This document shows positions 15,949 through 64,000 of a stretch of DNA of 64,000 bases, one piece after another (within the stretch, counting starts at the first letter, position 1; each line of letters opens with the position of its first letter). The notes beneath the pieces are model-generated. The model was given only the letters and a program-made list of their open reading frames with translations. It was not told the origin of the DNA and searched no databases. The position numbers were made by a program, and so were the translations under genes. The stretch comes from Candidatus Uhrbacteria bacterium (GTDB lineage: Bacteria > Patescibacteriota > Patescibacteriia > UBA9934 > GWF2-40-263): assembly GCA_016188495.1 (NCBI GenBank), contig JACPHU010000002.1:111466-175465 (forward strand), written 5' to 3'.

Positions 15949-16560
15949 TCAGTGAAAGATCATTGCACAACTGATCCCGGTACTCACGAGAAACATTAGC
16001 GCATGGGCAATGGCCCATTCACTGGGGTTCCAGCTACCTGTATTTTCCGGGGTTACTATTTGATATTCTCGTTCCCCAAAGAATCCTGGCCCTTTCTTGG
16101 TGAGTACCTTTCGTGGAATACAGAGCCTTTTATAAGACCAGAAGAGAATCAGGGAAGTCAGAAAAAAGAATGGGATTCCGACTACTGCACCGAGTAAATC
16201 CTTGGTCAGACCTACAGCATCTTCGCCCATGATTTTCCAGGCGATCATGAGCATGGTGAAGTGTCCGACTTCCGTGTTTCCAAATTTGGTCACTTCACCA
16301 TTGAGAGCGCTGAGCGCTCCGGAGACTCCTTCGCCGATTTCCTTTCCGATGCCGGCATACTTGCCGACCTGCTCCAGGTTGGTGAGTGTTTCTCCGACCT
16401 TGATCTGCGCGATCTGACCTTGGGTCAACTGACTGGCCGGAACCACGTAGGTTTGGGGCGGTTCCGGTGCCTGCTGTTGTCCCAAAGCGGTGGCAGACGC
16501 GAAGGCGAGCATCATCAACACAGCGACGATCATTGAACGGACTCGGGATCTGATCTGCAT
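15949..16560 (-). CDS. Hypothetical secreted/membrane protein (GC-rich island)
   Basis: N-terminal signal-like 'MIVAVLMMLAFASATALG'. A hairpin terminator lies at 15895-15923. Higher GC than flanks. Confidence 0.5.
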   Translation of the reverse strand: MQIRSRVRSMIVAVLMMLAFASATALGQQQAPEPPQTYVVPASQLTQGQIAQIKVGETLTNLEQVGKYAGIGKEIGEGVSGALSALNGEVTKFGNTEVGHFTMLMIAWKIMGEDAVGLTKDLLGAVVGIPFFFLTSLILFWSYKRLCIPRKVLTKKGPGFFGEREYQIVTPENTGSWNPSEWAIAHALMFLVSTGISCAMIFH

Positions 16561-25587: not shown

Positions 25588-25671
25588 AGATTTCTTTCAT
25601 TTAGAGTATCTTCGGCAAAGGATTATCGCAGGTACGTGGTAATCTGTTGGTCGTTCTTTGGAGACAGTAAC

Positions 25672-26106
25672 ATGTCCAGACTCAGATCTCATCAGGTAGG
25701 CCATGGTTCCGGTTCTCCAGCAACCACGAGCAAGAAGGATGCTTACAGCGCTTTTCAATCGCTCAGTGGTCGATTCAAAGCAGGTGGAGAGATTCATGGG
25801 GAAGAGCTGTTTGAGTTGGCGGTTTCTACCACAAGGAATTTTTCCGGCATGGATAGTACCCAGGTTCTGGAAATTTTCCATTTTCTTTTGAGTTTTCGGG
25901 TACGAATGGATGAGAGAGATATCCGTTCTTTTTCCAACAAGATCGAGAAGATCGCCAGATACCTGTCTCCTAAGATTTCACGAAACGGGGAGATGATTCT
26001 CAACCCATTTCTCGGCCGTCTGACGACAGGGCATCAGCTTCGTACCACGATCAACAGAGAAGCCACTCGCGTCGGGCAGATCGAGGCGGCGCTCGTCTTC
26101 GTCTGA
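25672..26106 (+). CDS. Hypothetical protein (higher-GC segment; strand choice uncertain, an 94-aa ORF overlaps on the minus strand)
   Basis: ORF only; elevated GC relative to flanks. Confidence 0.3.
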   Translation: MSRLRSHQVGHGSGSPATTSKKDAYSAFQSLSGRFKAGGEIHGEELFELAVSTTRNFSGMDSTQVLEIFHFLLSFRVRMDERDIRSFSNKIEKIARYLSPKISRNGEMILNPFLGRLTTGHQLRTTINREATRVGQIEAALVFV

Positions 26107-37972: not shown

Positions 37973-38530
37973 ATGCGTAAACGAAAAAAGAGAAGGGAGC
38001 CGATCATGCCCAACCTACGAGTCCAAGTGCGTTCTTTCATGCGCAATATCATGCGCTGGAAATTCGTCTTTGATGTGTTGACGCTTCTGCTGATCAGTCT
38101 CCTGCTGGGGAGCTACTACGTTCCCTGGATTCACGTGAGTTCACAGTTAGTGGATTATTGGTTTTCCACACTCGTCATCTTCGTCGGCGCGCGGGAGGTC
38201 GGACGATGGATCGGTGATCACAAGCAGGGAAAGTACATCCTGCGCTTCATCGCCCATGGCGAGATCTATCTTCTTCTTTTTTTGATCCTACCTTTTGTCA
38301 TGGGTGTTCCCGAGTCCTTTTTTACAAACGCTCCTACAGCTCAACAGAAAGCCGTGATGGTCATGGCTACTGACCTGGGCCTCAAAGTTTCTTTCCTTTA
38401 TGCCACCAGCGCGGTGAGTAAAGGAGGAAGCGAAAAGTACCAGGATTTTGTGGAGAAACTCTCCGCATTTATCAATGCCGTTTTGACTCCCAAAAAACCT
38501 TCTGAGAAACCTGACTCGCGCACCGGATGA
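37973..38530 (+). CDS. Hypothetical membrane protein (GC-rich island)
   Basis: ORF with 3-4 TM segments; start may be internal (MPNLRV at 38006). Confidence 0.4.
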   Translation: MRKRKKRREPIMPNLRVQVRSFMRNIMRWKFVFDVLTLLLISLLLGSYYVPWIHVSSQLVDYWFSTLVIFVGAREVGRWIGDHKQGKYILRFIAHGEIYLLLFLILPFVMGVPESFFTNAPTAQQKAVMVMATDLGLKVSFLYATSAVSKGGSEKYQDFVEKLSAFINAVLTPKKPSEKPDSRTG

Positions 38531-38602: not shown

Positions 38603-39277
38603 TCAGACTCCCAGGTTTGTTCGCAGATCGTTCACAGTCCTCTTGATAAGTCCGATTCCCTTGCTTGCCAGCAGAGCTGCTTTTGTCATGGCAGTCTCAG
38701 GGTGGACTTCATATTTGACCGGCGGTTCATGACCGTGCCAATCCTTTAGATGCTGTGAGCTTTCGAGAATACGGGGATCATCGAGCACAACAGCGATGGG
38801 ACGGCACATCACTCCTGCGTTCTCGAACATTGCTTCCGAGACCTGAATGACCCGACCCCGCCAAATGCCTTTGAAGGATCCGGCAGGGAACAGGCGCAGG
38901 ATTTCCCATGTGGGCAGATTCTGATTAAGACACAAGGTCGGATCTGTGTCGAAGCTTCCGATCTCGATCAGACAGACGTCACCCACATGGAAATTTCCGT
39001 GAGTTGTGACACCCTGCATCCGATACAACGGTCGAACCTCATACTCAAACGGAGGCTCTTTGTGGGACAATTTCCTTACGCCTTCGTTTTTATGCCCGTC
39101 GATACGGTCATCGGTGAAGAACGCCCGGATGGGCTGCGGTGACAGACGGGCGTCACCCATCTCGCTCACTTCGCCCCGATACCATGTGTCACCGCCGAAG
39201 TCATCGTACGTGGGGCCACTGAGCACATCCACATTCCTGCGAATGATTCGGATCTCACACATACCTCCCACAGACAT
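38603..39277 (-). CDS. Hypothetical protein, possibly MOSC-like beta-barrel (GC-rich island); start uncertain
   Basis: 'THGNFHVGDVCLIEIGSFDTDPTLC' loosely resembles the MOSC GENL..GD..PC motif. The listed ORF extends to 39439, overlapping the murE start. Confidence 0.3.
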   Translation of the reverse strand: MSVGGMCEIRIIRRNVDVLSGPTYDDFGGDTWYRGEVSEMGDARLSPQPIRAFFTDDRIDGHKNEGVRKLSHKEPPFEYEVRPLYRMQGVTTHGNFHVGDVCLIEIGSFDTDPTLCLNQNLPTWEILRLFPAGSFKGIWRGRVIQVSEAMFENAGVMCRPIAVVLDDPRILESSQHLKDWHGHEPPVKYEVHPETAMTKAALLASKGIGLIKRTVNDLRTNLGV

Positions 39278-39398
39278 CTTGGAAATATTTGTCCGTCCGA
39301 GGAATCGCGCTTTTGCCACTTTTATTCTCCTTTGTTGGTGGTTTAAGTGGAGGATTAGAATATACAAAATAAGCCAAAATGTCAATGGTTGTGATAAA

Positions 39399-40751
39399 AT
39401 GCCTGAACGTATGATTAAGCCGTTTCTTCGCAAAATCATTCCAGAGCCTTTGATAAGCGTTTATCATCTTATTTTGGCGCATGTAGCGGCTTTTTATTAT
39501 GGATATCCTTCACAACAGTTGATTGTGATCGGAGTGACTGGCACCAATGGAAAATCTACCACCGTTCAATTTATCGGGCGATTGTTGGAACACGCAGGCG
39601 AGAGAGTAGGTTGGACCAGTACGGCCAGTTTTAAAGTGGCAGATCACGAATGGGTGAACGATAAGAAAATGACCATGCTCGGACGTTTCCAAACGCAGAA
39701 ATTACTTCATCAAATGGTCAAATCAGGTTGTCGTTATGCGATTGTGGAGACTTCTTCTCAGGGTATTGCCCAATTTCGACATGTCGGCATCAATTATGAT
39801 ATCGCTGTATTCACGAATTTAACCCCCGAACACATCGAGGCTCATGGGGGATTTGAAAATTATAAAGCGGCAAAGGGAGCTTTTTTTGCGTCGTTAAAAA
39901 AAGGTTTGCGAAAAAAAATAGACCGGAAAGAAATAGACAAAACAATCATTGTGAATCTGGATGATCTACATGCGGAATACTTCCTTTCTTTTGGCGCAGA
40001 TCGTTCTACAGGATTTAGCATGCGCAATACACAACGACCTTTTGCACGTTTGAATACAGCACCTGTGATTGCGACAGAAGTACAATTTTCAGGAACCTGT
40101 ACACTGTTTACCTACGACGATCTCTTGTTTCATTTCAAACCTATCGGCCCATTTTATTTTTACAATCTTCTCGCTGCCATGACCGTGGCTCGTGAATTGG
40201 GGGTTGGTTCACAAGCACTGCGTGCGGCTGTTGAATCGCTTGAGCCTGTTCCGGGTCGTTTAGAGAACATCGATGAAGGACAACCATTCACGGTCATTGT
40301 TGATTACGCGTATGAGCCAGCGGCACTTTTGGCCCTTTACCAAGCGATTGCGTTGATAAACCACGAGCGGATCATTCATATTTTAGGATCTGCAGGCGGG
40401 GGAAGGGATGTTGCTCGTCGTCAGGTACTGGGGCGTATGGCTGCCCAGAACGATGATATTGTGATTGTGACCAACGAAGATCCTTATGATGAATCTCCGA
40501 TGCAAATCATTACAGATGTCGCCGATGCGGCACAGCAGGAAGGTAAAAAAGATGAGACAGATCTTTTTCGTATTTTAGATAGGGAAAAGGCGATCGAATA
40601 TGCCATTGCCCTTGCTCAACCGAAGGATCTTATTTTAATTACAGGTAAGGGCAGTGAGCCTGTTATGGCTGTGGCTCAAGGAAAAAAAATTCCTTGGGAT
40701 GATCGTCTGGTCGCCCGAAAAATTCTCAAAAAACAGTATGGAAGCACCTAA
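39399..40751 (+). CDS. murE: Mur ligase family, MurE-like (UDP-MurNAc-L-Ala-D-Glu:diamino acid ligase)
   Basis: P-loop 'IGVTGTNGKSTT'; 'TNLTPEHIEAHGGFENY'; C-terminal 'VTNEDPYDESP'. Start chosen at 'MPERM' rather than the ORF-track 39006. Confidence 0.7.
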   Translation: MPERMIKPFLRKIIPEPLISVYHLILAHVAAFYYGYPSQQLIVIGVTGTNGKSTTVQFIGRLLEHAGERVGWTSTASFKVADHEWVNDKKMTMLGRFQTQKLLHQMVKSGCRYAIVETSSQGIAQFRHVGINYDIAVFTNLTPEHIEAHGGFENYKAAKGAFFASLKKGLRKKIDRKEIDKTIIVNLDDLHAEYFLSFGADRSTGFSMRNTQRPFARLNTAPVIATEVQFSGTCTLFTYDDLLFHFKPIGPFYFYNLLAAMTVARELGVGSQALRAAVESLEPVPGRLENIDEGQPFTVIVDYAYEPAALLALYQAIALINHERIIHILGSAGGGRDVARRQVLGRMAAQNDDIVIVTNEDPYDESPMQIITDVADAAQQEGKKDETDLFRILDREKAIEYAIALAQPKDLILITGKGSEPVMAVAQGKKIPWDDRLVARKILKKQYGST

Positions 40752-43109: not shown

Positions 43110-43185
43110 GCCACTGTAGCTCAGTTGGTAGAGCAATGCTTTCGTAAAGCAGAGGTCGGCGGTTCAAATCCGCCCAGTGGCTCCA
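43110..43185 (+). tRNA. tRNA-Thr (anticodon CGT), CCA encoded
   Basis: Manual cloverleaf: acceptor GCCACTG/CAGTGGC, D-stem GCTC/GAGC, anticodon stem ATGCT/AGCAG, loop TTCGTAA, T-stem GGCGG/CCGCC. Confidence 0.85.
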
Positions 43186-43256: not shown

Positions 43257-43330
43257 TGGAGCGGGATACGGGAATTGAACCCGCTTCTTCAGCTTGGGAA
43301 GCTGACATATTACCAGTGTACGAATCTCGC
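43257..43330 (-). tRNA. tRNA-Gly (anticodon CCC), CCA encoded; one A-C mismatch in acceptor stem
   Basis: Manual fold on the minus strand: anticodon stem TCAGC/GCTGA with loop TTCCCAA; T-loop TTCAATT. Short D-loop typical of tRNA-Gly. Confidence 0.7.
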
Positions 43331-43340
43331 AGAAGATATT

Positions 43341-44279
43341 TTATCTTTCTATAACAGCCATTTCTTTTATTTCTTTCATTGCTTGTCGATAGCGTTGTTG
43401 TTCTTGTTCCATTCGTTGTTTTTGAGTTTGAATTTTTTCCTCGATTTCTGGCGATAGTTGAATTTCTGGATTTCCAACCAAACGTCGTAAGAGTTTACGC
43501 CATGTTGGATTTTCAATAGATTCCAATTCTTTTATCTGTTTATAGCGAGGTTTAATAAAAGCTCCTTTGTGGTCACTAATGGATGGTGGTGACGGATATT
43601 TTCGTTCGGCATCAGTCTCGACACCAAGGGGTTTGAAGATAAGATCATCACGAGTATCTTCCTTTTTTCTAAAAGACCCAAGAATTGCAGCTTTGTCAAA
43701 AGAAGCAGTTGAGAACGCGTGTGTAAGTAAATTTTGTGCAAGGTCTAATGTTTGACCTGAAAAAATAAAACTATCAACGATTAAAATGCGTGGCGGAAGT
43801 GATTTGAATGTTTCTTGTAATTCGGTAATGAGCAATTTTAATTTTTTGTTTGCCTCTTCCTGCCGAAAAAGCATGTATTCTTCTTGTCTATCATATCCAT
43901 ATTTTTTTCTGGATTCTTTTTTTATTTCTTTCATCGTTTTTTTATCATAGTAATGATCGTAATAATATTGCATTTTGTCATATCCAGTGATGAGTTCTCT
44001 GCCTACTTTGATATATTTTATTTCTGGAAATTTTTTGTCTGGAAAACGATGTTGCCATCGCGCATGAAGCAAATGCGACCAGATTCGAGCGCCTTGATCA
44101 AGAAAAATAAGGGCGTCATAGTTGGTTTGAGAAAGTTGATCCAAAAAATGATCTGCAGCCTCAAGCATCAACTCGCGGTCTTTTGTGTCAAAAATTTCAA
44201 ATTTTGATTTTTCAACAGATTCCATTTTTTTCAATGCCGTTGTTTCTGGAATAAATTTAGATCCACCTTCTTTCATCAT
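43341..44279 (-). CDS. Phosphoribosyltransferase-like protein (type I PRT PRPP-binding motif), AT-rich
   Basis: 'ILIVDSFIFSGQTL' resembles the PRPP-binding loop. Confidence 0.45.
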   Translation of the reverse strand: MMKEGGSKFIPETTALKKMESVEKSKFEIFDTKDRELMLEAADHFLDQLSQTNYDALIFLDQGARIWSHLLHARWQHRFPDKKFPEIKYIKVGRELITGYDKMQYYYDHYYDKKTMKEIKKESRKKYGYDRQEEYMLFRQEEANKKLKLLITELQETFKSLPPRILIVDSFIFSGQTLDLAQNLLTHAFSTASFDKAAILGSFRKKEDTRDDLIFKPLGVETDAERKYPSPPSISDHKGAFIKPRYKQIKELESIENPTWRKLLRRLVGNPEIQLSPEIEEKIQTQKQRMEQEQQRYRQAMKEIKEMAVIER

Positions 44280-46795: not shown

Positions 46796-47170
46796 ATGAC
46801 TTTAAAAAAACGAATTGAAATATCTGATTTTACAGCTATTTTTTCTCTCTCGCTTATTTTAGTTTGGATTTCTCATTTTTTATTTTTTACATTGACAGGG
46901 TCAAATGATATTAAAGATATTTTTGCCACAGGAGGTTTTCCCATAAGGTCTTTTTCTTATCCAGGTCCAGCGATGGGTAATGATCATGTTCCTCCCCAGA
47001 TGTGGGGAGGATTTGCTCTGAATATTCTTTTTTGGTTGTTTGTTTGTTCTTTTCTCTTTCAATTTTTTCCAGAAAAATATAAGTCAGAAAAAATAAGACG
47101 CATTATTTTTTGTAGCGCTATCATTCTTACTCTTTTTGGAAAGTTTTATTTTTTGTTGAAATTTGATTAA
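46796..47170 (+). CDS. Small hydrophobic hypothetical protein
   Basis: ORF with 3-4 TM segments; AT-rich. Confidence 0.4.
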   Translation: MTLKKRIEISDFTAIFSLSLILVWISHFLFFTLTGSNDIKDIFATGGFPIRSFSYPGPAMGNDHVPPQMWGGFALNILFWLFVCSFLFQFFPEKYKSEKIRRIIFCSAIILTLFGKFYFLLKFD

Positions 47171-47243: not shown

Positions 47244-47317
47244 TGGTTCCCGGACAGGGATTCGAACCCCGATACCCAGGACCAAAACCTGGTGTCCTGC
47301 CTTTAGACGATCCGGGA
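47244..47317 (-). tRNA. tRNA-Gln (anticodon TTG), CCA encoded
   Basis: Manual fold: acceptor TCCCGGA/TCCGGGA, anticodon stem CCAGG/CCTGG with loop TTTTGGT, T-stem CGGGG/CCCTG (one G-U). Confidence 0.8.
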
Positions 47318-54684: not shown

Positions 54685-54761
54685 TGGTCGGGCTAGTGGG
54701 ACTTGAACCCACGGCCTCCAGACCCCCAGCCTGGCGCTCTAGCCTACTGAGCTATAGCCCG
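54685..54761 (-). tRNA. tRNA-Pro (anticodon GGG), CCA encoded
   Basis: Manual fold: acceptor CGGGCTA/TAGCCCG, D-stem GCTC/GAGC, anticodon stem CCAGG/TCTGG with loop CTGGGGG (G37), T-stem GTGGG/CCCAC. Confidence 0.75.
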
Positions 54762-54978: not shown

Positions 54979-57900
54979 ATGAGACGTGAGGGTGAAGCTT
55001 TACATGATCGTGAATCAGCTAAAAAACAAGAAATTTCTTTTTCTGATATTCAGGATGATTTAACTTCTGTATTGGTCAGTCAACGCGAGTTTGTTTCTAG
55101 ACAGGAGTCAGATCGTCTTCCCGAACTTATTTTAGATGAATCTGCGTTTGATCAGTTATCCCAATCTCAACGTACCGCGGTTGAACAAAATGTACGATTA
55201 CTTTCATTGTTATCTGGACATCGGGGAAGCATGCTTCGACGTCAGTTAAAGTCTCTTCAAAATCCATCCGTGGCTAAACTCGCTCAATTATTGGAGTGGT
55301 CCAATAGCGTTGTAAAAAGTGGAGTTTTTTCTTTTGATGAAACAATAACCACACCGCCTTCTGATTTTTTACAAAAGAAAAAGGATCCACGTGAGCTGTA
55401 TGAATATGTACTAGCCGCTTCCGCGATGGGTGAGGAAGAGTCAGTTAATCCAGAAGCGCTTTCTGAAACCATCCGTCGAAGTTTGCATTTGGCGCCTGGA
55501 AAAGGTGATGCGGATATCAATAAGGTGTTGTTTGGCGATCGGTCTAAAGAGATAAAAGTTGTTTTAGACACCTTAGGATTTATTCCTCGCCAGCTTTATA
55601 AATATCCCTCTTTCAGAATACTTGAGCCTGCACAGGTTATTGCTGCTGAGCGCCAACTTCGAGAAATAGAGCAGTCTCATCCTTCATTGCGTCATCAAGC
55701 CCGCGAGGAACGTACCCAGGTCACTCAAGCATTATTTACCAGTGGCATTGCAAAGAAATTACGAACAGGCGGAACAGATACCCGATACGTGACCTTGGAC
55801 TCAAACGGTGTCCGCATTCATTTTGACGGACGTGTTTCTGGAAAAGGGAAATCCCTTTTAGACCGTCCATTTGTGGCGCATATTCCCTACGGTCTTTTAT
55901 CGGATGAATGTGTTTCAGAATTAGAAAAGCATTGGCTTCAAACAGAAGCTGAAGGATTAGAATTACGGCTTCGTCGAGCTCAAGAGAATTATGACATCCC
56001 AGAGAGCCGCGCCAAAAAAGAGCATCAAGTTTCTGCTTTTGCTGACACCTTGGGTTTAACCAAAGAAACTCCGGAATTGACGTATCAAGCCTTTAAAAAA
56101 GAACTTGTTGAATTTCCTGATCGTTTTGCAAAACGCGTTTTAGACAGCGGTGAGATCATTCCAGATCAGCTGCTTGAACGATTGTTTGCAGATATGCAGG
56201 AGAAGGGGATCTTTGTTTCCATGCGGTTTGCGGAGGCAGTCACGGCTTTCATTTCCACAGAAGCTCTTTCGAATAAACGATTGTTTCTTCAGCACGGTAT
56301 TAAAGATAACCAAAAACAAACGTATCAAGCTCGCGCCCGAGTCATGAGCGACCCTCGTTATTACAATGCCCTAAAAATTGTCCGTTCGGTTCTTGTACAG
56401 CACCCTTACTCCGATCCTGAAAAACAGTTTTTGGTTTTTCGCGGACAATATAAAAAATCCAACGAAGGCCGTCAGCATACCTTTTTAGAAGTTGTTCATG
56501 AGGGTCAGATGGCAAAGGTGTTAGTCGATGAACAAAAGGAGTTTAAATCAGATCAGTTAGAACGCACACCTGTGTTTTCTCGAGAAGTATATGAAGAGTT
56601 GGAAGAAAGTTTAGTGGCTTTTGATTATTTTCTTGGACGGATTGATCAGATGCGACGGCTTGTCCGTTATAAAAACAAACACTGGGAAACAAAATTTCGT
56701 GAAGACATGAAAGAGGTGGAGATTTTTGTGCTCACCAATGTCAGTCATCGATATAAAGACCTTCGTGTTCTTATTGATCGATTGCAAACCCAAGAGATGC
56801 CTGAAGAAACTCTTTTGTCTTTTTTCTACGTTCTTCAACAGACACAAGAAGAGTATCGAACGTTTCTCTACCAAGGCGCTACGCCGGAACTCATCGGTTT
56901 CCGAGATTTTTTTCGTCCAAGTGTTCGAGTGCAGGAAATTGAGTATGGCCAAGAATTTTTATCTTTAGCAACACGGATGTGTCCTGAGTGGGGGGTTGAT
57001 AAAGAATTGAGTACAGAATCTCAACCTATTCGTGTGATTGCCTTGAATCATCTTATTCAACATCCATCAGAAACAATCCCTGTCGATGTTGAAGAGGCTG
57101 TGTTAGATAAATTACGTGTAAATCGTAATCGTCCTTTGATCAACGTGGTAGGTGGTTGTAAGTTTGTCGCTGGAATGGAGAATCCTGAAGACCATCCGCT
57201 TAATAAAATGAGTTTAGCTGTGCTAAACGTTGCTCACGAAGTAAAAGCCAATGTCGCTGTTCCTGGGACACAGTCTGGAATCGGAGTGTACTTTGGACAA
57301 CAAAATGTGAGATACCGACGAACCACAGATCATTTTCCGTTTAAAGAACGTGCACATCTCTTTTCTATTTCCACCGGTGGGAATACCGTTTATCCAGAGA
57401 ATCCTTGGATGGAAAAGACAGATCCATCCGAACGATATGCTGTGGCGCCAGTGGACACAGTTGTCACACCTATTACGGCTTTATGGGAAGCTAAAGGGAA
57501 GGAGCGTTTAAGAGGTTACGATCTTCATATTGTTTATATGGAGTCATTGTTTGCTCGTATTAGTAAAGAGCAGCCTCGTGTCCTGGTAGCGGGCAACGGT
57601 GGTATTTTTTCTATTTTGGAAATTAATGAGTCCATCAAGCATGGGTTTGATATTCTTCTGATCGAAGATTCTGGTCGTTTTGCAGAAGCAGCTTCAGCGG
57701 TTATGAGAGAAATCGACCACTTACCAGATCCAGAGGATCCAGGATTTGATGAACATGTGCGTTTATTGTTGCAGGCTACACTTCCAACGGATGTTATGAA
57801 AGAATTTTTTAAAAAGGATTTTGGAGAGACAACACCTCCTCAAGGAGATCTGAAAGAAAATTACGAGGTGTTTCGAGATCATTTTCGACGATTCGTTGTC

Positions 57901-57987
57901 TTAGCAAAGCAATTTCCTAACAAAGTTCATGTGACTCATCTGGATTCACTTGAAAGAGATATACGGACGTTTGTCACACCTCCTTAA
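54979..57987 (+). CDS. Large hypothetical protein (1002 aa) with C-terminal LOG/SLOG-like Rossmannoid domain
   Basis: C-terminal 'VVGGCKFVAG' and 'LVAGNGGIFSILEINESIKHG' resemble the two LOG-family glycine-rich motifs. N-terminal about 650 aa unassigned. Confidence 0.55.
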   Translation: MRREGEALHDRESAKKQEISFSDIQDDLTSVLVSQREFVSRQESDRLPELILDESAFDQLSQSQRTAVEQNVRLLSLLSGHRGSMLRRQLKSLQNPSVAKLAQLLEWSNSVVKSGVFSFDETITTPPSDFLQKKKDPRELYEYVLAASAMGEEESVNPEALSETIRRSLHLAPGKGDADINKVLFGDRSKEIKVVLDTLGFIPRQLYKYPSFRILEPAQVIAAERQLREIEQSHPSLRHQAREERTQVTQALFTSGIAKKLRTGGTDTRYVTLDSNGVRIHFDGRVSGKGKSLLDRPFVAHIPYGLLSDECVSELEKHWLQTEAEGLELRLRRAQENYDIPESRAKKEHQVSAFADTLGLTKETPELTYQAFKKELVEFPDRFAKRVLDSGEIIPDQLLERLFADMQEKGIFVSMRFAEAVTAFISTEALSNKRLFLQHGIKDNQKQTYQARARVMSDPRYYNALKIVRSVLVQHPYSDPEKQFLVFRGQYKKSNEGRQHTFLEVVHEGQMAKVLVDEQKEFKSDQLERTPVFSREVYEELEESLVAFDYFLGRIDQMRRLVRYKNKHWETKFREDMKEVEIFVLTNVSHRYKDLRVLIDRLQTQEMPEETLLSFFYVLQQTQEEYRTFLYQGATPELIGFRDFFRPSVRVQEIEYGQEFLSLATRMCPEWGVDKELSTESQPIRVIALNHLIQHPSETIPVDVEEAVLDKLRVNRNRPLINVVGGCKFVAGMENPEDHPLNKMSLAVLNVAHEVKANVAVPGTQSGIGVYFGQQNVRYRRTTDHFPFKERAHLFSISTGGNTVYPENPWMEKTDPSERYAVAPVDTVVTPITALWEAKGKERLRGYDLHIVYMESLFARISKEQPRVLVAGNGGIFSILEINESIKHGFDILLIEDSGRFAEAASAVMREIDHLPDPEDPGFDEHVRLLLQATLPTDVMKEFFKKDFGETTPPQGDLKENYEVFRDHFRRFVVLAKQFPNKVHVTHLDSLERDIRTFVTPP

Positions 57988-58019
57988 TATTCCCTGAGCG
58001 AGGAGTCATCGACGAGTCG
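57987..58019 (+). repeat. 33-nt exact repeat, copy 2, overlapping the stop codon of the 1002-aa gene
   Basis: Identical to 17590-17622; followed by a strong hairpin terminator. Confidence 0.8.
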
Positions 58020-58039
58020 AAGGGGCATTGAAATTAAAT

Positions 58040-58080
58040 AACCACCAGATCCCGAAGGAGTCTGGTGGTTTTCGTTTTTT
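58040..58080 (+). terminator. Strong rho-independent terminator after the 1002-aa gene
   Basis: CCACCAGA-tcccgaaggagt-CTGGTGG + TTTTCGTTTTTT. Confidence 0.75.
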
Positions 58081-58227
58081 GCCTCCCTATACCCCGGGTG
58101 GCGGACCACGTTACTCGCAAGCAACATGGTGAGGGGTGAGTTGATGAGCCGCAGCTCTTCAACTCTCGAAGTCCTTAACCGCAGTTTTGGACCTCGGCCC
58201 TCTCTCCACCCGTAGGTGAGGAGAAGG

Positions 58228-58845
58228 CTAGCTATTGATCAGATCGATTGACTTCTGGACGGCACTGGTCATGCTGTCGCAGATATACACGTTGGGGTAA
58301 TCCTTGACCAGATCGCTCAGATACGACCGCATCCGGTTGGCATCCTTGAGATCTCGACCCAGAACCTCCTGGTTCTCGATCACGGTTCCCATCGGAATAT
58401 TCTCGATGGAGAGAACGACCGTTCGCCCGTCGGCTCCATACTTGAGAGCTTCCATGATCGAAACGCCGGCGCGAGTCTGTCCGTCGATGACGAACAGGAG
58501 CACCTTTGCCTCATCCTTGGCCGCGGCTTCGATTGCCACCAGTTCCGGTGACCAGTCGTCGACCTGGGGGTTGTAGAAGCTCACTCCAGCTTCTTCCAGC
58601 GTCGGAATGGCATAATCGAACCGCCAGGTGGTCGGGTTGCACGAGCCACCGAGAAACACAGAAGCATTCGAACCAGTAGCATTCTTCATCTCGTTTCCAT
58701 CCTTAGCAGGACTTTTTGTGAATAAACCTACCGTTGTCTGTCCCGCAATATGACGCGGGTAGGCACTGCTGCGACTCATCGTTTTTGGAGCACATGCTCT
58801 TTGACGATGACGGATGAGAATATCAGATTTTATCATTTTTGTCAA
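58228..58845 (-). CDS. Nucleoside 2-deoxyribosyltransferase-like protein (GC-rich island)
   Basis: 'SVFLGGSCNPTTWR' and overall size/pattern resemble the Nuc_deoxyribosyltransferase-like family. Visibly GC-rich. Confidence 0.55.
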   Translation of the reverse strand: MTKMIKSDILIRHRQRACAPKTMSRSSAYPRHIAGQTTVGLFTKSPAKDGNEMKNATGSNASVFLGGSCNPTTWRFDYAIPTLEEAGVSFYNPQVDDWSPELVAIEAAAKDEAKVLLFVIDGQTRAGVSIMEALKYGADGRTVVLSIENIPMGTVIENQEVLGRDLKDANRMRSYLSDLVKDYPNVYICDSMTSAVQKSIDLINS

Positions 58846-59088
58846 TAGTTTTAGACAGATGAAATATTTAGAACAAGCATATTTTGCTTTATTTAGTGAA
58901 AATTTTGACAGTTTTTTTAAAAGAAGTTATTCTTATAGTGGTTTATGACACAAACAAATGTTTCCATCTTCGTTCGCCGTTGCCGTTGTCTTTAAAGGAC
59001 GATACGCGGGTTTGTGATTTTAAATTCCTGTAACGTCGTCCTGTTTGGGCGATTTTTTGTTTGTCCAACCAGCAAAGGAGAAGAGATC

Positions 59089-59598
59089 ATGGCTCTCACA
59101 TGCCTGTTTCCTGCACCTATTTCTAAAGGTGTATGGCACGTTCTTTCAACCGCTCTGGGTTACGAACCAAAGATTGATTCTGAACGGAATACCCCAGAGA
59201 ATCTACAGGACCTTTATCAACGTTCATTAGCAGCTCTGCTTATGGACGGGAATGTACCCGTTGGGTTTATTGCCGCTTGGCCTGTGGCAGAGGGATTTGT
59301 CGAGATCGGTTCCGTGTGGATTCATCCCGACTATCGTCATCAAGGGTTGAGTCATCAGATTTACGATGCGATACTTTTGCTTAAAGGTGTTGGCCAACAG
59401 ATCGCTTTTGGTGTCACAACCAATCCTATTTCTGTCCATGTTGGGCACCGAGTAGGGCTTGAAGTGATGGAGAATTGGGACACGCCTGTTCCTCGAAATC
59501 TGACCTGTGGACCCTGCGAATTAGTTCGTTCAGAAAATCAACCAACCTGCGAAAAACGAAATAAAACCTGCTGGTTACGCATCAGGAAGAATACGTAA
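59089..59598 (+). CDS. GNAT-family N-acetyltransferase
   Basis: Motif A-like 'IHPDYRHQGLSHQIYDA'; SD 'AAAGGAGAAG' upstream. Confidence 0.6.
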   Translation: MALTCLFPAPISKGVWHVLSTALGYEPKIDSERNTPENLQDLYQRSLAALLMDGNVPVGFIAAWPVAEGFVEIGSVWIHPDYRHQGLSHQIYDAILLLKGVGQQIAFGVTTNPISVHVGHRVGLEVMENWDTPVPRNLTCGPCELVRSENQPTCEKRNKTCWLRIRKNT

Positions 59599-59625
59599 AA
59601 GAGGGTACGCATCCCTCTTTTTTGT
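59597..59625 (+). terminator. Terminator after the GNAT gene, at the boundary to the GC-rich block
   Basis: AGAGGG-tacgcat-CCCTCT + TTTTTG. Confidence 0.7.
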
Positions 59626-59920
59626 TTCCTACTCTTGACAAAATCACTCTTTCTGACTAAGGTCCTGCTCTTCAGATAGGGCCCGTCTGATTCAAAACGT
59701 TTTCTTTAGGAGAAAACTGTTTCATGCAAAGGCCCTTCTGCAAGAAAGGGTTCTTTTTATTTTGCGTATACCATACACGCGTTTGGATCATTTCTGTGTT
59801 TCAGGGGGCTCCTGTGCACAGAAGTGATCCTCAGACGCGTCTATGGTGTACCTCAATCTTCGTGTGGTCGTTCCTGTCAGATCACGTGTAAGAATATTGT
59901 TCGACAGGGAGGGTACTTCA

Positions 59921-61783
59921 ATGAACCGATGGATTCGTTATGCGGTGTTGGCCCTGAGCGTGATGCTCTGGACCGCTTGTTCCAAGAATGAGCAGCAGAG
60001 CGCGGCTCCTGCCGCCAATGAAACAGCTGCGCAGAATCAGTCCGCTGCACCCAATGTTCCTGCTTCGACCGTGGGTATGCCCGGCGGGGCGAAGATGTCC
60101 GGAGAACCGGTTCAGGTTCCGTATATCACCTGGGGTGGGGATTATCCCTTCTTCTGGTGTACGGGCGGGCTGCAGACACGTGAAAACACGATTTGCGCCC
60201 AGTACAAGACCAACGTGAAGTTGGTTCCCGGCGACAATTTCCAGACGCAGCTGGCCGATTACAAGGCTGGCAAAAGTCCGTTCCTGCGGGGCACCTTCGA
60301 AATGGTGGGTGTTCACACTGCCGAGCTGTGTGGAAATGACGCCAATGCCTGTCCCGAGTTCGTCTTCCAGATGACTTGGTCGGCGGGCGACCATCTCGTG
60401 ACCCGCGAGGGAATCACAGACCTCGCTCAGCTCAAGGGGAAGACCGTCGCTTTGCAGAAGAGCGGACCTCACATGGGATTCCTCTTTGCGATCCTTCAGG
60501 ATGCCGGCCTCAAGTGGTCGGATGTGAAGATCGTCTGGGTGGATAATCTCTCGGGTAACGGATCTCCGGCTGAGGCTTTGCAGAAGAACGCGTCCGTGGA
60601 TGGGGTGTTCGTAATCACTCCGGATATGCTCGCTTTGACCGGTGCCGAAAGCACGGTCAAGGGAGCGCATGTCCTGGTGTCGACCAAGGAACGCCGTCGT
60701 ACGATCGCGGATGCCTACTTCGTGCGCCATGATTGGGCACAGGCTCATCAGGAAGAGCTCCGAAACTTCGTCGCTGCCTATCTTTACAGTATGGAAGCGG
60801 TGAAAGCTCTGCAGGAAGCCTATGACGGCTCCGGTTCCCCCGAGTATAAGGCTCTGATGAGTTTTACGCTTCAGGCCTTGCCGACTATTCCGACGTTCGA
60901 AGATGCCGATGGTCTGTATCGCGATGCAACGTTCGTCGGACATTCCGGCGCCGTGGCGTTTCTGGACGCGCAGAACAAGGAAGGGATCAACACCTTCGTG
61001 AGTCGCTCAAACGCGATTGCTCGAGAACTGAATCTCGCCACGAACGATTTTCAGATCAACGTGGCTCCTGTGGATCTGTCCCACGCCGTGTTCAACTCTC
61101 TCAAGACCAAAGGATTGGCGAGGAAGACAGCGTTCAATGCCGAAGCCACCCGTGCGCAGCTGGAGCAGATGACCAACCAGGGAACCCTGGGAAAGAACAA
61201 GTCTCTGTCCTTCAGTGCGGGGTATGCTCCCAACCAGACGACGTTCGATGCCAGCCAATACAAGGTTGAGTTCGACCGAATTCTCGAATTGATGGGAAGC
61301 TATTCGACGGCTCCGGTGGCGATTCGTTGTCATGCGGATACGCTCATTGCTGTAGGTTCGATGCTTCAGACAGGAATGGAAGCGGGAGTGATTTCCCGTC
61401 AGGGAACCTCTGGTAACTATTCCTACTTTATTGATGGAGTTCCTCTGGACATCACCAATGCCTCAAAGATCGGCGGATTGATCCATGATCCGAGGTTCAA
61501 TCAGACAAAGAACGCTGATGCACAGAGTCCAACGGAGATTGCAGGTGCGGCCAAGACGCTCACCGAAGAGCGATGCCGAAATGCTCGGGACTCATTCCTG
61601 GCCTATGCCAAGTCAAAGGGATCTAAGATCTCTGACGCTCAGGTCGTCGCTCAGGGGGTGGGAATTGGTGAACCTGTGGTTGTTCTCCCACGTTCGGAAA
61701 AGGAAACGGCTGCCAATCGGCGCGTCGAGTTTTCCGTCGTACGTGTCGAGGTAGAAGCCACTAACCCTAGTTTCGATTACTGA
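59921..61783 (+). CDS. Lipoprotein fusion: periplasmic substrate-binding (NMT1/SsuA-like) domain + C-terminal OmpA-like peptidoglycan-binding domain (GC-rich block)
   Basis: Signal + 'LWTAC' lipobox-like. 'LKGKTVALQKSGPHMGFLFAILQDAGLKWSDVKIVWV' is SBP-like. C-terminal 'AANRRVEFSVV' is the OmpA_C signature. SD 'GGGAGGG' upstream. Confidence 0.65.
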   Translation: MNRWIRYAVLALSVMLWTACSKNEQQSAAPAANETAAQNQSAAPNVPASTVGMPGGAKMSGEPVQVPYITWGGDYPFFWCTGGLQTRENTICAQYKTNVKLVPGDNFQTQLADYKAGKSPFLRGTFEMVGVHTAELCGNDANACPEFVFQMTWSAGDHLVTREGITDLAQLKGKTVALQKSGPHMGFLFAILQDAGLKWSDVKIVWVDNLSGNGSPAEALQKNASVDGVFVITPDMLALTGAESTVKGAHVLVSTKERRRTIADAYFVRHDWAQAHQEELRNFVAAYLYSMEAVKALQEAYDGSGSPEYKALMSFTLQALPTIPTFEDADGLYRDATFVGHSGAVAFLDAQNKEGINTFVSRSNAIARELNLATNDFQINVAPVDLSHAVFNSLKTKGLARKTAFNAEATRAQLEQMTNQGTLGKNKSLSFSAGYAPNQTTFDASQYKVEFDRILELMGSYSTAPVAIRCHADTLIAVGSMLQTGMEAGVISRQGTSGNYSYFIDGVPLDITNASKIGGLIHDPRFNQTKNADAQSPTEIAGAAKTLTEERCRNARDSFLAYAKSKGSKISDAQVVAQGVGIGEPVVVLPRSEKETAANRRVEFSVVRVEVEATNPSFDY

Positions 61784-61796
61784 GAAGGAGGATCAC

Positions 61797-62777
61797 ATGA
61801 ACGGATATAAATTTCTCCTTCGACTGTGTGTCGTGTTGGGGATTGTCAGTTTCTTTTTGATCCCGATGATGGTTGGTGCGGCCGATATTCATAACACTAC
61901 CGTGATTGTGCTGGACGGTTCCGGTTCCATGGATGAATCCATGAGGGATCAAGCGACAGGCCAGTCCGTCAAGAAGATGGATGCGGCCAAAAAGGCCCTC
62001 AAGGATGTTATTGCCAAGGTGCCGTCGGATACCCATGTCGGAATTCTGGTCTTCACAAGCGGTCGCATGGGATGGCTCACAGATCCACCTCTTGGACAGG
62101 TTCAGGAGAACATCTTTTCGGCTCTGGATCAGGTCAGTCCTGGAGGAGGAACTCCGCTGGGACTGGGTATCAAGAACGGAACGGACATGCTCCTACATGA
62201 TCGTCAGACACAGAATAATGTCGGGCGATATCAGTTGATTGTGGTGACTGATGGTGAAAATACACAAGGTCCAGGGGTGGATGAATATGCTCCGTTGGTT
62301 GCTCCTCGCGGCATCCGGATGGATGTGATCGGTGTGGCCATGCCCGGTGGTGCCACTCATCAGCTCGCACAGTGGGCCGATTCTTATCAGCCGGCCGATG
62401 ATGCTGTAAGTCTCCAGACCGCTCTTAAGAAAGCGATCGTGGTGGAGGCGGGCGGAAAGGATGCTCCGGCAGACTTCTCTGCTACCGCAGGGCTTCCGAT
62501 GGAGGTAGCGAAAGTCTGGCTTGCCGCGCTCTCACAGACTCCCCCCAATTATCCGTTGGGAGAGCAGCCTCCTGTGGAGACCAAACCGAATCCTGCCTCT
62601 GCCGCAGTTCCTGTTGCTGAGGCACCTCCCGCTCCTCCTGAATTGGTTCAGTCCAGCTGTAGCACAGCAGGAACCGGAACCATCGGGAGCGGTCTGACAA
62701 CGCTCATGCTCGTGATCATCATTCTGACGTCTCTGGTTTCCAGACGTCGACTGATTCCTGTTCGTATCCGGCGTTAA
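61797..62777 (+). CDS. Secreted von Willebrand factor A domain protein with C-terminal Cys-containing TM + Arg-rich tail
   Basis: MIDAS 'DGSGSM' and 'VVTDGEN'. Tail is 'SSCSTAGTGTIGSGLTTLMLVIIILTSLVSRRRLIPVRIRR'. SD 'GAAGGAGGA'. Confidence 0.75.
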   Translation: MNGYKFLLRLCVVLGIVSFFLIPMMVGAADIHNTTVIVLDGSGSMDESMRDQATGQSVKKMDAAKKALKDVIAKVPSDTHVGILVFTSGRMGWLTDPPLGQVQENIFSALDQVSPGGGTPLGLGIKNGTDMLLHDRQTQNNVGRYQLIVVTDGENTQGPGVDEYAPLVAPRGIRMDVIGVAMPGGATHQLAQWADSYQPADDAVSLQTALKKAIVVEAGGKDAPADFSATAGLPMEVAKVWLAALSQTPPNYPLGEQPPVETKPNPASAAVPVAEAPPAPPELVQSSCSTAGTGTIGSGLTTLMLVIIILTSLVSRRRLIPVRIRR

Positions 62778-62934
62778 CGCCACGATGTCCTTCTCGTTTC
62801 ACTTCATGTGAGTCTACGAAGGACTTTTTTCCTAAGGTCATCTCAGTAACATGAGTTGATCTGAGGCTGAAAAGAATACATTTGTTCTATAAGGTTTAAG
62901 TTCTCTTCAACTGAATAGAAAGAAGGAGAATTCG

Positions 62935-64000
62935 ATGGCTGACAATGAAACGCGGGCAATGCGTAATTTGGGAGCCGGTATTCTGGCTCTTATCTTGATT
63001 GTGGTCCTTGGAGTGAGTTTCAAGTTTTTGATCTATCCCAAGTTGCAGTCTCGTCTAGTAGAATCTACCAGTGCAACAACAAGTTACACTTCGCAGATAA
63101 CCGTCTGTGGCGATTCGTTCGCCGGCTATGCCGTCGTGCGTTCGCCTGCCATGAAGCGTGAGCTCGCCTCCAAAGGGATTCGTCTCAATTGGAAAGATGA
63201 TGTAGCGGACTACGGCGCGCGCGCAAAGGCTGTGCGTGCCGGAGAGTGCGATTTCGCGGTCAATACCATCGACGCGGATCTGGTGACCGGACAGGATTTG
63301 GGAGAGTTTCCCGGTTCCATTATTTTCATCATCGATGAGAGTCATGGCGCCGATGGCGTGGTCGCCTACAAGACGGCCGTACCCAATGTCCAGGCACTCA
63401 ATCAAGCCGGAACCAAGATCGTCGTGACAGCAAATTCACCCAGTGAAACTCTGGCGCGGCAGATGATCTCGGGCATGCTTCCCATGCTCGCCAACGATCA
63501 ACATTGGCTGGAAGCGGCTGATGGTGCAGAGGCTGTCTATAAACAGCTCATCGGTACCAAGCCCAATGAGCGCAAAGCATTCGTTTTGTGGGAACCCTGG
63601 CTTTCCAAAGCTCTCGAAATCGACGGCGTTCAGAAGATCTACGATTCATCCGCCACTACAGCGACAATTGTTGATGTGATGACGGTGAATCGAAGTTATC
63701 TTTCCGAACGTGCCGATTTGGTGAACTTTTTCACTCAGGCCTATTTCAGGAATCTCTGGTCCTATACCAGTCAGCCTTCTGGACTCAGGGATCTGGTGAT
63801 CGAGGACGCCCAGGAGCAGGGAAGCAAGCTCATCAACGATCAGGCGCTTGCTATCGTGACAGGAATTCGATGGAAAAATACTTTGGAGAATTATGCCCAT
63901 ATGGGTCTGGTCCCCAGGTTTGAAGCCAAAGGCATTCCCAACATGGAAGACATGGTTTCGGGAATTTCTCGATTCTTGGTTCGCACAGGCAAACTTGCGA
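62935..64000 (+). CDS. Membrane-anchored NMT1/SsuA-like ABC-transporter substrate-binding protein (3'-truncated by window edge)
   Basis: ORF runs off the window end (not in the ORF track). SD 'AAGGAGAA'. N-terminal TM, then an SBP-like domain similar to the N-terminal half of the 59921 protein. Confidence 0.6.
   Translation, partial: MADNETRAMRNLGAGILALILIVVLGVSFKFLIYPKLQSRLVESTSATTSYTSQITVCGDSFAGYAVVRSPAMKRELASKGIRLNWKDDVADYGARAKAVRAGECDFAVNTIDADLVTGQDLGEFPGSIIFIIDESHGADGVVAYKTAVPNVQALNQAGTKIVVTANSPSETLARQMISGMLPMLANDQHWLEAADGAEAVYKQLIGTKPNERKAFVLWEPWLSKALEIDGVQKIYDSSATTATIVDVMTVNRSYLSERADLVNFFTQAYFRNLWSYTSQPSGLRDLVIEDAQEQGSKLINDQALAIVTGIRWKNTLENYAHMGLVPRFEAKGIPNMEDMVSGISRFLVRTGKLA

Follow-up and report, generated by a model that had tools for sequence, protein, structure and literature searches.

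The stretch of DNA analyzed here (the window; 64,000 nucleotides of contig JACPHU010000002.1, assigned to a Candidatus Uhrbacteria bacterium) contains ordinary chromosomal genes, for example those for MurE, MurI, FtsEX, DivIC, HflX and RNR, and ends in a GC-rich block of three genes preceded by a long leader. This window end is probably the control region and the first three genes of an operon of nine genes. The complete set (genes 1–9) is present on L001, a Logan contig that was retrieved by an exact look-up of the von Willebrand factor A (vWA) protein encoded by gene 2. As the GC-content on L001 drops back to 41–45% past gene 9, the GC-rich unit appears to be the nine-gene operon (~11.6 kb), of which the window includes the first third. 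A preliminary description of the window, made from its sequence, had treated the block as a module of three genes and thereby missed the six downstream genes, among them those for a PspA homologue, an AAA+ ATPase and an ABC transporter.

Genes and control region of the operon

The features of the operon are as follows, with positions being those of the window unless stated otherwise.

59597..59621, both strands: intrinsic terminator (terminator scan; 9 pairs and a T-run on both strands), closing a GNAT acetyltransferase gene
59635..59663, +: promoter with −35 box TTGACA (59635–59640), 17-nt spacer and −10 box TAAGGT (59658–59663)
59672..59690, +: hairpin P1, 6 pairs, 2 of them with compensatory changes
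59729..59754, +: P2, leader terminator with U-run inside the 5′ untranslated region (59731–59752 in the terminator scan)
59769..59848, +: hairpin P3, ~31 bp, apical half near-identical across the clade
59871..59913, +: helix P4, in which a conserved CCUGUC pairs with GACAGGGAGG and masks the ribosome-binding site (RBS) of gene 1 (RNAalifold consensus)
59921..61783, +: gene 1, 620-aa lipoprotein with a TauA/SsuA/NMT1-type substrate-binding domain and an OmpA-like domain
61797..62777, +: gene 2, 326-aa secreted vWA protein with a metal ion-dependent adhesion site (MIDAS)
62935..64000 (window end), +: gene 3, first 355 of 515 aa, the rest being on L001
L001, past the window end: gene 4, 252-aa protein with two transmembrane (TM) helices and a cytoplasmic helical bundle
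L001, past the window end: gene 5, 278-aa coiled-coil protein, PspA/Vipp1 (ESCRT-III superfamily) homologue
L001, past the window end: gene 6, 399-aa binding lipoprotein, TIGR03427-like (E 5e-26)
L001, past the window end: gene 7, NitT/TauT-type ABC permease (BPD_transp_1)
L001, past the window end: gene 8, ABC ATPase (ABC_tran)
L001, past the window end: gene 9, 616-aa AAA+ protein with a putatively degenerate N-terminal half and a classical AAA domain predicted to be active

Gene 1 starts at 59921 and not at the upstream ATG (59843) of the listing of open reading frames (ORFs). Its binding domain (residues ~57–400) matches Pfam NMT1, and its AlphaFold2 model (predicted local distance difference test score 79.7) retrieved TauA (6ssy; E 4e-12) and SsuA in a Foldseek search. 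The OmpA-like peptidoglycan-binding domain (residues ~425–607) is interrupted by an insertion; searched as a single sequence, gene 1 gave no Pfam OmpA match, whereas the profile of its family matched the OmpA-like structures 3oon (E 2.6e-5) and 3td3, and PF00691 is present in many family members. In addition, the residues H471, D473, R551, N599, R601, E603 and F604, which belong to the H-x-D, L..R and NRRVEF motifs, are invariant in the family, and a cysteine is present in the signal peptide in the window's clade. The earlier reading of gene 1 as a fusion lipoprotein of an NMT1/SsuA-like and an OmpA domain was thus borne out. Some relatives of gene 1 (P0138, P0015 and P0176) are longer (~970–980 aa) because ~390 additional N-terminal residues precede the binding and OmpA-like domains, and thus show an extended architecture of this family. 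Antisense to gene 1 lies a 341-aa ORF (59918–60943, −), which is most likely a stop-poor shadow frame of this GC-rich gene and not a genuine gene.

Gene 2 had been described as a secreted vWA/MIDAS protein, and this assignment holds: both Pfam VWA_2 (49.3 bits) and VWA (42.6 bits) match above their cut-offs, and the MIDAS residues D40-x-S42-x-S44, T119 and D152 are at least 90% conserved among 76 homologues. The protein consists of a signal peptide, the vWA domain, a Pro/Ala-rich stalk, a cysteine, a single C-terminal TM helix and an Arg-rich tail. In all homologues of gene 2 a signal peptide is present, the stalk is rich in Pro, Ala and Ser, and a single C-terminal TM helix is followed by a basic tail.

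Gene 3 had been read as a membrane-anchored substrate-binding protein paralogous to the N-terminal half of gene 1. The relationship exists at the profile level (hhalign E 9e-8 between the two families), but pairwise BLAST of gene 1 against gene 3 found no match, and the description as a binding protein alone was incomplete. In the full protein (L001 4946–6493; 515 aa), a TM anchor at the N-terminus precedes the binding domain, and an OmpA domain (PF00691; 43.2 bits against a cut-off of 27.2) follows beyond the window end. The family of gene 3 is also related to that of gene 6 (hhalign E 1e-12), with pairwise BLAST between these two proteins likewise being blank, so that all three binding-protein families (genes 1, 3 and 6) are mutually related at the profile level. 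Genes 1 and 3 both encode an OmpA-like domain, by which their products are predicted to bind the peptidoglycan of the cell wall.

Among the genes beyond the window end, gene 4 did not yield any ESCRT-III- or Snf7-like signal with any of the methods applied. Gene 5 did not match Pfam PspA_IM30 at E-values up to 1 when searched as a single sequence, whereas a profile built from 21 homologues matched the structures 8qbw, 8qbr and 6zvr (E 1.4e-9 to 2e-9). The alignment with PspA/Vipp1 consists of two collinear stretches (query 39–94 to target 30–85 and query 133–237 to target 99–200), and an N-terminal amphipathic segment is present as well. By its family profile, and only by that profile, gene 5 is therefore recognizable as what we consider a divergent member of the PspA/Vipp1 family. 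Gene 7 matches the TauC, SsuC and NtrB models and gene 8 the nitrate, sulfonate and taurine models, with all NitT/TauT matches of genes 6–8 lying under the equivalog cut-offs, which limits the assignment to the family level. The C-terminal half of gene 9 resembles VAT/p97 (E 5e-34) and Vps4 (E 5e-15) and has conserved Walker A, Walker B and RPGR motifs. In its N-terminal half a conserved TGN replaces the P-loop; its similarity to the C-terminal half is weak (64% probability, E 6e-5), although the Walker B regions are aligned with each other, and so is its match to Vps4 (4lgm; E 0.017), which fits with a degenerate first AAA domain. A PADLOC search with the operon proteins revealed no defence system, the only similarity being a generic AAA match of gene 9 to IetA (E 5e-8, 85 residues). 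Proteins with 100% identity to the products of genes 4 and 5 (HYV70_01115 and HYV70_01120) are encoded in a metagenome-assembled genome of Candidatus Uhrbacteria, while those of Uhrbacteria GW2011_GWF2_39_13 are ~80% identical.

The control region begins at the bidirectional terminator (59597–59621), its left edge. In the promoter that follows, the seven aligned upstream regions, including those of the distant L088 and L007, all agree in TTGACAA and in the TAA..T box; as the −10 box fits the consensus at only three of six positions, the promoter was not listed by a generic scanner. Conservation across five genomes extends over the 300 nt that separate gene 1 from the terminator of the GNAT gene, although synonymous sites are saturated. 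Over the whole leader, 20 pairs change on both sides compared with 11.2 ± 2.2 in shuffles (none of 500 shuffles reached 20), and 91% of the cells are paired compared with ~44% when the partners are slid. The folding energy of the window leader is −101.8 kcal/mol, while shuffles reach −65.6 ± 4.3 (z = −8.5). For P3 alone, 13 of 30 pairs exhibit compensatory changes (five sequences) and 94% of the cells are paired, whereas P2 keeps its stem and T-run in all five leaders despite differing stem sequences. The loop of P1 (AGGGCC) could pair with the leader terminator on its 5′ strand. This complementarity is kept in four of the five leaders with two double changes, and the pairing is present in the minimum-free-energy fold of the window leader, which makes it a candidate antiterminator. 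The GTCCTGTC and GACAGG(G/A)AGG motifs are conserved in L088, too. Taken as a whole, the leader of ~250 nt is conserved and structured, with a function as a switch being a candidate role only. The preliminary description had located two hairpin terminators here, and the terminator scan indeed found both (59597–59621 and 59731–59752); the second one is, however, not a plain boundary, as it sits inside the conserved leader.

A search of Rfam with the leader (59664–59920) returned no family at threshold and only sub-threshold matches to miRNA-type hairpins on both strands (59766–59851). A covariance model of P3 retrieved this hairpin exclusively from the region preceding gene 1 in the close clade, with no match in L088, L007 or other phyla. 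A metagenome scan for the conserved leader core yielded four matches, one being the L004 contig and three being chance matches in GC-rich coding DNA, and hence no additional leaders. A leader peptide (ORF 59724–59891) was considered and rejected; this ORF is not conserved, and a conserved peptide is excluded because the indels between the leaders are not multiples of three.

Composition, integrity and history of the locus

The step in composition that had been reported for the window end was confirmed by sliding-window analysis, with a GC-content of 0.536 at 59921–64000 and of 0.435 at 1–59600. The GC of the block has a z-score of ~ +5.3, and every other 4.08-kb window lies at or below 0.485. 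The original estimate of 58–60% applies to a small part of the block only: values of 0.57–0.58 are confined to ~59.9–61.0 kb, the remaining block ranges from 0.49 to 0.55, and intergenic dips reach 0.42. The rise also does not begin at 59640, as had been stated, but at ~59.9 kb with the coding sequence, because 59600–59900 is a non-coding leader with 44% GC. The GC-content at third codon positions (GC3) is 0.63 in gene 1, 0.54 in gene 2 and 0.57 in gene 3, compared with 0.33–0.43 in the majority of the host genes. As the GC-normalised tetranucleotide usage deviates as well (correlation with the bulk of 0.73 for the block and of 0.874 ± 0.025, minimum 0.81, for the other windows), the anomaly exceeds what GC alone accounts for. 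It is not entirely restricted to the block, as the gene at 58228–58845 (−) is also GC-rich and further scattered genes of the window reach GC3 values of 0.52–0.62. The strong GGAGG-type RBSs that had been noticed were found ahead of all three genes (GGGAGGG, AAGGAGGA and AAGGAG, respectively). In contrast, 42 of the 51 window ORFs of at least 120 aa lack a Shine-Dalgarno-like motif at −20 to −4, a count that is approximate as the ORF starts were called crudely. This suggests that the host organism mostly initiates translation without a Shine-Dalgarno motif.

An abrupt change in composition could in principle arise from a chimeric assembly in which contigs of two organisms were joined at 59.6–59.9 kb, as had been considered in the preliminary description. 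Apart from the change itself nothing speaks for such a junction, and it is extremely improbable. Over the 6011 nt of window positions 57990–64000, L001 shows 0 mismatches, and it extends further through the operon and back into low-GC DNA. The join between the left flank and the operon is common to three independent assemblies (L001, L004 and L088), with L004 being an assembly from the Joint Genome Institute (JGI) and L088 originating from a different sequencing run, and in both of these the operon is joined to the same gene for a SLOG-domain protein. Moreover, the leader that spans the supposed junction is conserved in five genomes, and in nzgw366 the operon is linked to orthologues of genes that lie at 29–39 kb and 50.3–51.3 kb of the window.

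Outside of the window's own lineage the operon is widespread. Among 1.84 billion cluster representatives, 188 relatives of gene 1 were found at E ≤ 1e-30, and a scan of GTDB species genomes, in which gene order was determined by tblastn with the nine operon proteins, resulted in 80 loci. Wherever a locus has room for them (more than 70 of the 80), genes 1, 2 and 3 lie next to each other in this order. The complete order 1–9 occurs in Verrucomicrobiota, Planctomycetota, Patescibacteria and CSSED10-310, and the same order is seen in Acidobacteria, Deltaproteobacteria/Desulfobacterota and Omnitrophota, where one gene escaped detection or the contig stopped short. The gene order of the operon recurs in at least eight phyla. 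In the Poribacteria locus L018 (OX639973.1; 14391–16458), genes 1–3 are followed by a 263-aa unassigned ORF and then by an IS605-type TnpB (OrfB_IS605 with a Cas12f-like TNB domain).

The deviating composition, tetranucleotide usage and RBSs, the proximity of a tRNA-Pro(GGG) gene (54685–54761, −) and the grouping of the operon with operons of the Myxococcota type would all be expected from an island that came from a GC-rich donor too recently for amelioration to have taken place, which was one of the readings put forward earlier. A recent acquisition is nevertheless very unlikely. The operon occupies the same position, linked to tRNA-Pro and NUDIX-CobA, in related Uhrbacteria (L004, nzgw366, L087 and L088), and the operon proteins, with 39–74% identity, have diverged about as much as the host proteins (36–81% in the nzgw366 flank, which is syntenic with the window). 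At fourfold sites, 56–79% of the positions differ between the window and nzgw366, for operon and host genes alike, and are thus near saturation. In L088, which has the SLOG flank in common with the window, gene 1 is just 49% identical, and the closest homologues outside the Uhrbacteria-type clade do not exceed ~45% identity. The operon was therefore at this locus in the common ancestor, and its transfer was not recent. As position and divergence agree between operon and host genes, it has, judging from these comparisons, since been inherited vertically within Uhrbacteria. This illustrates that composition alone misdates transfers, since a block that looks freshly foreign can have been inherited vertically for a long time.

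The suggested deltaproteobacterial-like origin, on the other hand, fits with the data, as does the description of the block as an envelope module with a composition unlike that of the host, for which both the domains and the composition were confirmed. In a neighbour-joining tree of genes 1 and 3, the Uhrbacteria-type operons form one clade (98–100% bootstrap), which is nested with operons of Myxococcota/Deltaproteobacteria (100% bootstrap). This grouping, together with the tail of gene 2, which resembles a MYXO-CTERM signal, points to a Myxococcota-like donor, so that an old transfer from a GC-rich organism of this kind to a site next to tRNA-Pro is likely.

The likeness of the tail to known sorting signals, which had been pointed out before, is a partial one. 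Like MYXO-CTERM signals, which are processed by the CPBP-family myxosortase MrtX and the defining features of which have been described (Guo, Haft and Wall, mBio 2025, PMC11980579), it combines a motif that contains a cysteine with a TM helix and an end rich in arginine. The tail of the window protein, however, reaches only 14.8 bits with the MYXO-CTERM model TIGR03901 (cut-off 20), while the related tails of L006 and L009 score 25.3 bits, which passes, and 16.3 bits, respectively. The host is, furthermore, a Patescibacterium without an outer membrane, and the combination of cysteine, TM helix and Arg-rich tail is confined to the window's clade and a few neighbouring sequences (L014 and L053), whereas most members of the gene 2 family have a plain TM anchor without a cysteine. 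The tail is hence best classified, by score and layout, as a sub-threshold look-alike of MYXO-CTERM. The search for a cognate sorting enzyme proposed earlier revealed no CPBP protease, sortase, exosortase or rhomboid family among the proteins of the 64-kb window and L001, which is a weak test as it covered these sequences only and the total genome size is not known. L006 (CAZDDH010000015.1) is labelled as "uncultured Rickettsiales", has 66% GC and carries an operon that groups with the Myxococcota/deltaproteobacterial ones; its taxonomic label looks doubtful.

If the synonymous sites are saturated, the signature of the donor should be gone under neutral decay, so the lasting composition calls for another cause. 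This cause may be translational selection, biased gene conversion or a replacement of the operon that has occurred repeatedly at the same site. That translational selection or GC-biased gene conversion keep the high GC3 and the strong RBSs, which would then not be a relic of the donor, is a possibility to be taken seriously, if somewhat on the unlikely side; it concerns the cause of the composition only and is compatible with the gene identities given above. It would account for a GC offset that persists in every lineage in spite of saturated synonymous sites. The GC3 of the operon exceeds that of the host in L088 (0.81–0.91 compared with 0.41, one host gene), in nzgw366 (0.63–0.86 compared with ~0.53) and in the window genome (0.43–0.67 compared with ~0.36). 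By inspection only, the ranking of the nine genes by GC3 is similar in the window genome and nzgw366, and in both genomes all nine genes keep an RBS motif while the flanking host genes do not have one. High GC is, however, not intrinsic to the operon, as its GC is close to that of the flanks in other phyla (median difference +0.008 among 66 loci), with an excess of ~ +0.10 occurring only in the window's close clade and one of +0.05 at a single Planctomycetota locus. Other genes of the window with high GC3 (ABC-F ATPase, U32 peptidase, RmlD and hypotheticals) are, in addition, not classic highly expressed genes, which is not decisive.

Related systems and possible function

The nine genes resemble a class of operons described by Ravi et al. 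(2024; mSystems, PMC11237479), in which PspA and TM-anchored Snf7 homologues occur with an AAA+ ATPase of the inactive+active type, sometimes in longer operons where an ABC ATPase, a permease and a protein of the PBPB-OmpA type are also encoded. In their example OGG56892.1 from Candidatus Handelsmanbacteria, the gene order is PspA, PBPB-OmpA, TM protein(s) (presumed permease), ABC ATPase, TM-Snf7 and AAA+. The operon shares with this class a homologue of PspA as well as linked genes for an ABC ATPase, a permease and a fusion of a binding protein with an OmpA domain. It also encodes a helical protein anchored in the membrane and a tandem AAA+ protein, the first domain of which may be degenerate. 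Gene 4 would be the counterpart of TM-Snf7, but a likeness to Snf7 was not confirmed. The operon differs from the published class by its other, fixed gene order, by three binding proteins, two of which are wall-anchored, and by a secreted vWA/MIDAS protein that is always present and is mentioned neither in the paper nor in its supplement. By its gene content, the operon can be assigned to the class of Ravi et al., in which the vWA gene and the present arrangement had not been noted. Full-text literature searches found no experimental work on it.

PspA/Vipp1 proteins are now recognized as bacterial relatives of ESCRT-III. With E. coli PspA and cyanobacterial Vipp1/IM30 (6zvr, 8qbw, 7o3w) gene 5 aligns collinearly, but the operon lacks the PspBC, PspF and Lia partners of the classical Psp systems and pairs gene 5 with an AAA+ ATPase, similar to the pairing of ESCRT-III with Vps4 in archaea and eukaryotes. 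Operons of the Bat or MoxR-vWA aerotolerance type also encode an AAA+ ATPase together with membrane-anchored vWA proteins. Presumably these are a different system, as the ATPase found here is a classical AAA protein (CDC48/Vps4-like) and not MoxR, and the vWA domain is located outside the cell, which makes direct contact between the two unlikely.

Combining these parts, genes 6–8 may form a type I ABC importer, while the products of genes 1–3, tethered to the wall on the outer side of the membrane, would connect membrane and peptidoglycan as a sensor or scaffold. The product of gene 4 could recruit the PspA polymer to the membrane, and the AAA+ ATPase of gene 9 could remodel this polymer as Vps4 does for ESCRT-III. 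The operon as a whole would then couple membrane maintenance to the state of the wall or to solute import, with the terminator/antiterminator and the RBS-masking helix of the leader possibly gating its expression. In its full form, with a self-contained bacterial counterpart of ESCRT-III/Vps4 that remodels the membrane and is steered by a wall-tethered sensor and a dedicated importer, a leader that is a new riboswitch-like or protein-responsive element, and a composition that results from selection, this proposal is tentative and rather unlikely to be correct in every part.

Several points weigh against the overall interpretation of the operon, its leader and its history. Every functional step is derived from domains and gene order, and as the vWA and AAA+ proteins face opposite sides of the membrane the usual partnership between such proteins is inapplicable. 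Poribacteria and some Myxococcota keep only genes 1–3 adjacent, so that this trio may either function on its own or have its PspA/AAA/ABC partners encoded elsewhere in these genomes. The tree is a neighbour-joining tree of two proteins, in which long-branch effects are possible, the evidence for the leader comes from only five or six sequences, and neutral amelioration fails to explain the lasting high GC of an operon acquired long ago.

An alternative explanation would be an ordinary ABC operon for nutrient uptake (of the sulfonate, taurine, nitrate or urea type), in which the PspA, AAA+ and vWA genes are unrelated neighbours and the additional binding proteins are spare receptors. The binding fold, the permease and the ATPase indeed belong to the same families as those of the NitT/TauT importers (TauABC, SsuABC, NrtABCD and the putative urea system "uca"), with scores far under the equivalog cut-offs, and three paralogous binding proteins are present. 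Even so, this explanation is clearly improbable. Two of the binding proteins carry OmpA-like domains that would immobilise them on the wall, and the order of the nine genes is constant even between distant phyla, as would not be expected of unrelated neighbours. Furthermore, Ravi et al. independently linked PspA, AAA+, ABC and PBPB-OmpA proteins in other arrangements.

For the proposal of a membrane-remodelling system steered from the wall, the pairing of genes 5 and 9 is of particular relevance, as the remodelling of PspA polymers without Vps4 is an open question and the operon combines a PspA homologue with a Vps4/CDC48-like ATPase. It joins this pair to wall-anchored receptors and a transporter, and the vWA/MIDAS protein and the two wall-tethered binding proteins extend the published parts list. 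Patescibacteria are organisms that live attached to other cells, and the fact that a reduced genome of this group spends ~11.6 kb on the operon suggests an important role in the envelope. The leader is, in addition, a concrete candidate for a regulatory RNA.

Neighbouring and other genes of the window

Between the tRNA-Pro gene of the window and the operon lie three genes. The first (54979–57987) encodes a 1002-aa protein with a prokaryotic SLOG/LSDAT domain, the second (58228–58845, −) is the GC-rich gene mentioned above, which is nucleoside 2-deoxyribosyltransferase-like, and the third is the GNAT acetyltransferase gene (59014–59598). In nzgw366 and L087, two tRNA-Pro genes are located directly upstream of the operon promoter, and because they abut the operon there, the SLOG/deoxyribosyltransferase-like module of the window looks like an insertion beside the tRNA. 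It is possibly a nucleotide-centred conflict system; PADLOC gave no match for it. The GNAT gene has a host-like composition (GC3 0.40), is followed by the bidirectional terminator and is absent from the same place in L004, for which reason it is regarded as a lineage-specific indel.

Elsewhere in the window, ORFs with extreme GC3 values occur in both directions. Two ORFs at 43341–44279 (−) and 46796–47170 (+) have very low GC3 (0.25 and 0.21, respectively), being outliers opposite to the operon, and genes for tRNA-Thr (43110–43185), tRNA-Gly (43257–43330) and tRNA-Gln (47244–47317) lie near or beside them. Five hypothetical proteins without a Pfam domain (4538–5911, −; 15949–16560, −; 25636–26106, +; 37973–38530, +; 38603–39439, −) exhibit GC3 values of 0.54–0.62, and three of the five have RBS motifs; they may be further old acquisitions or shadow ORFs.

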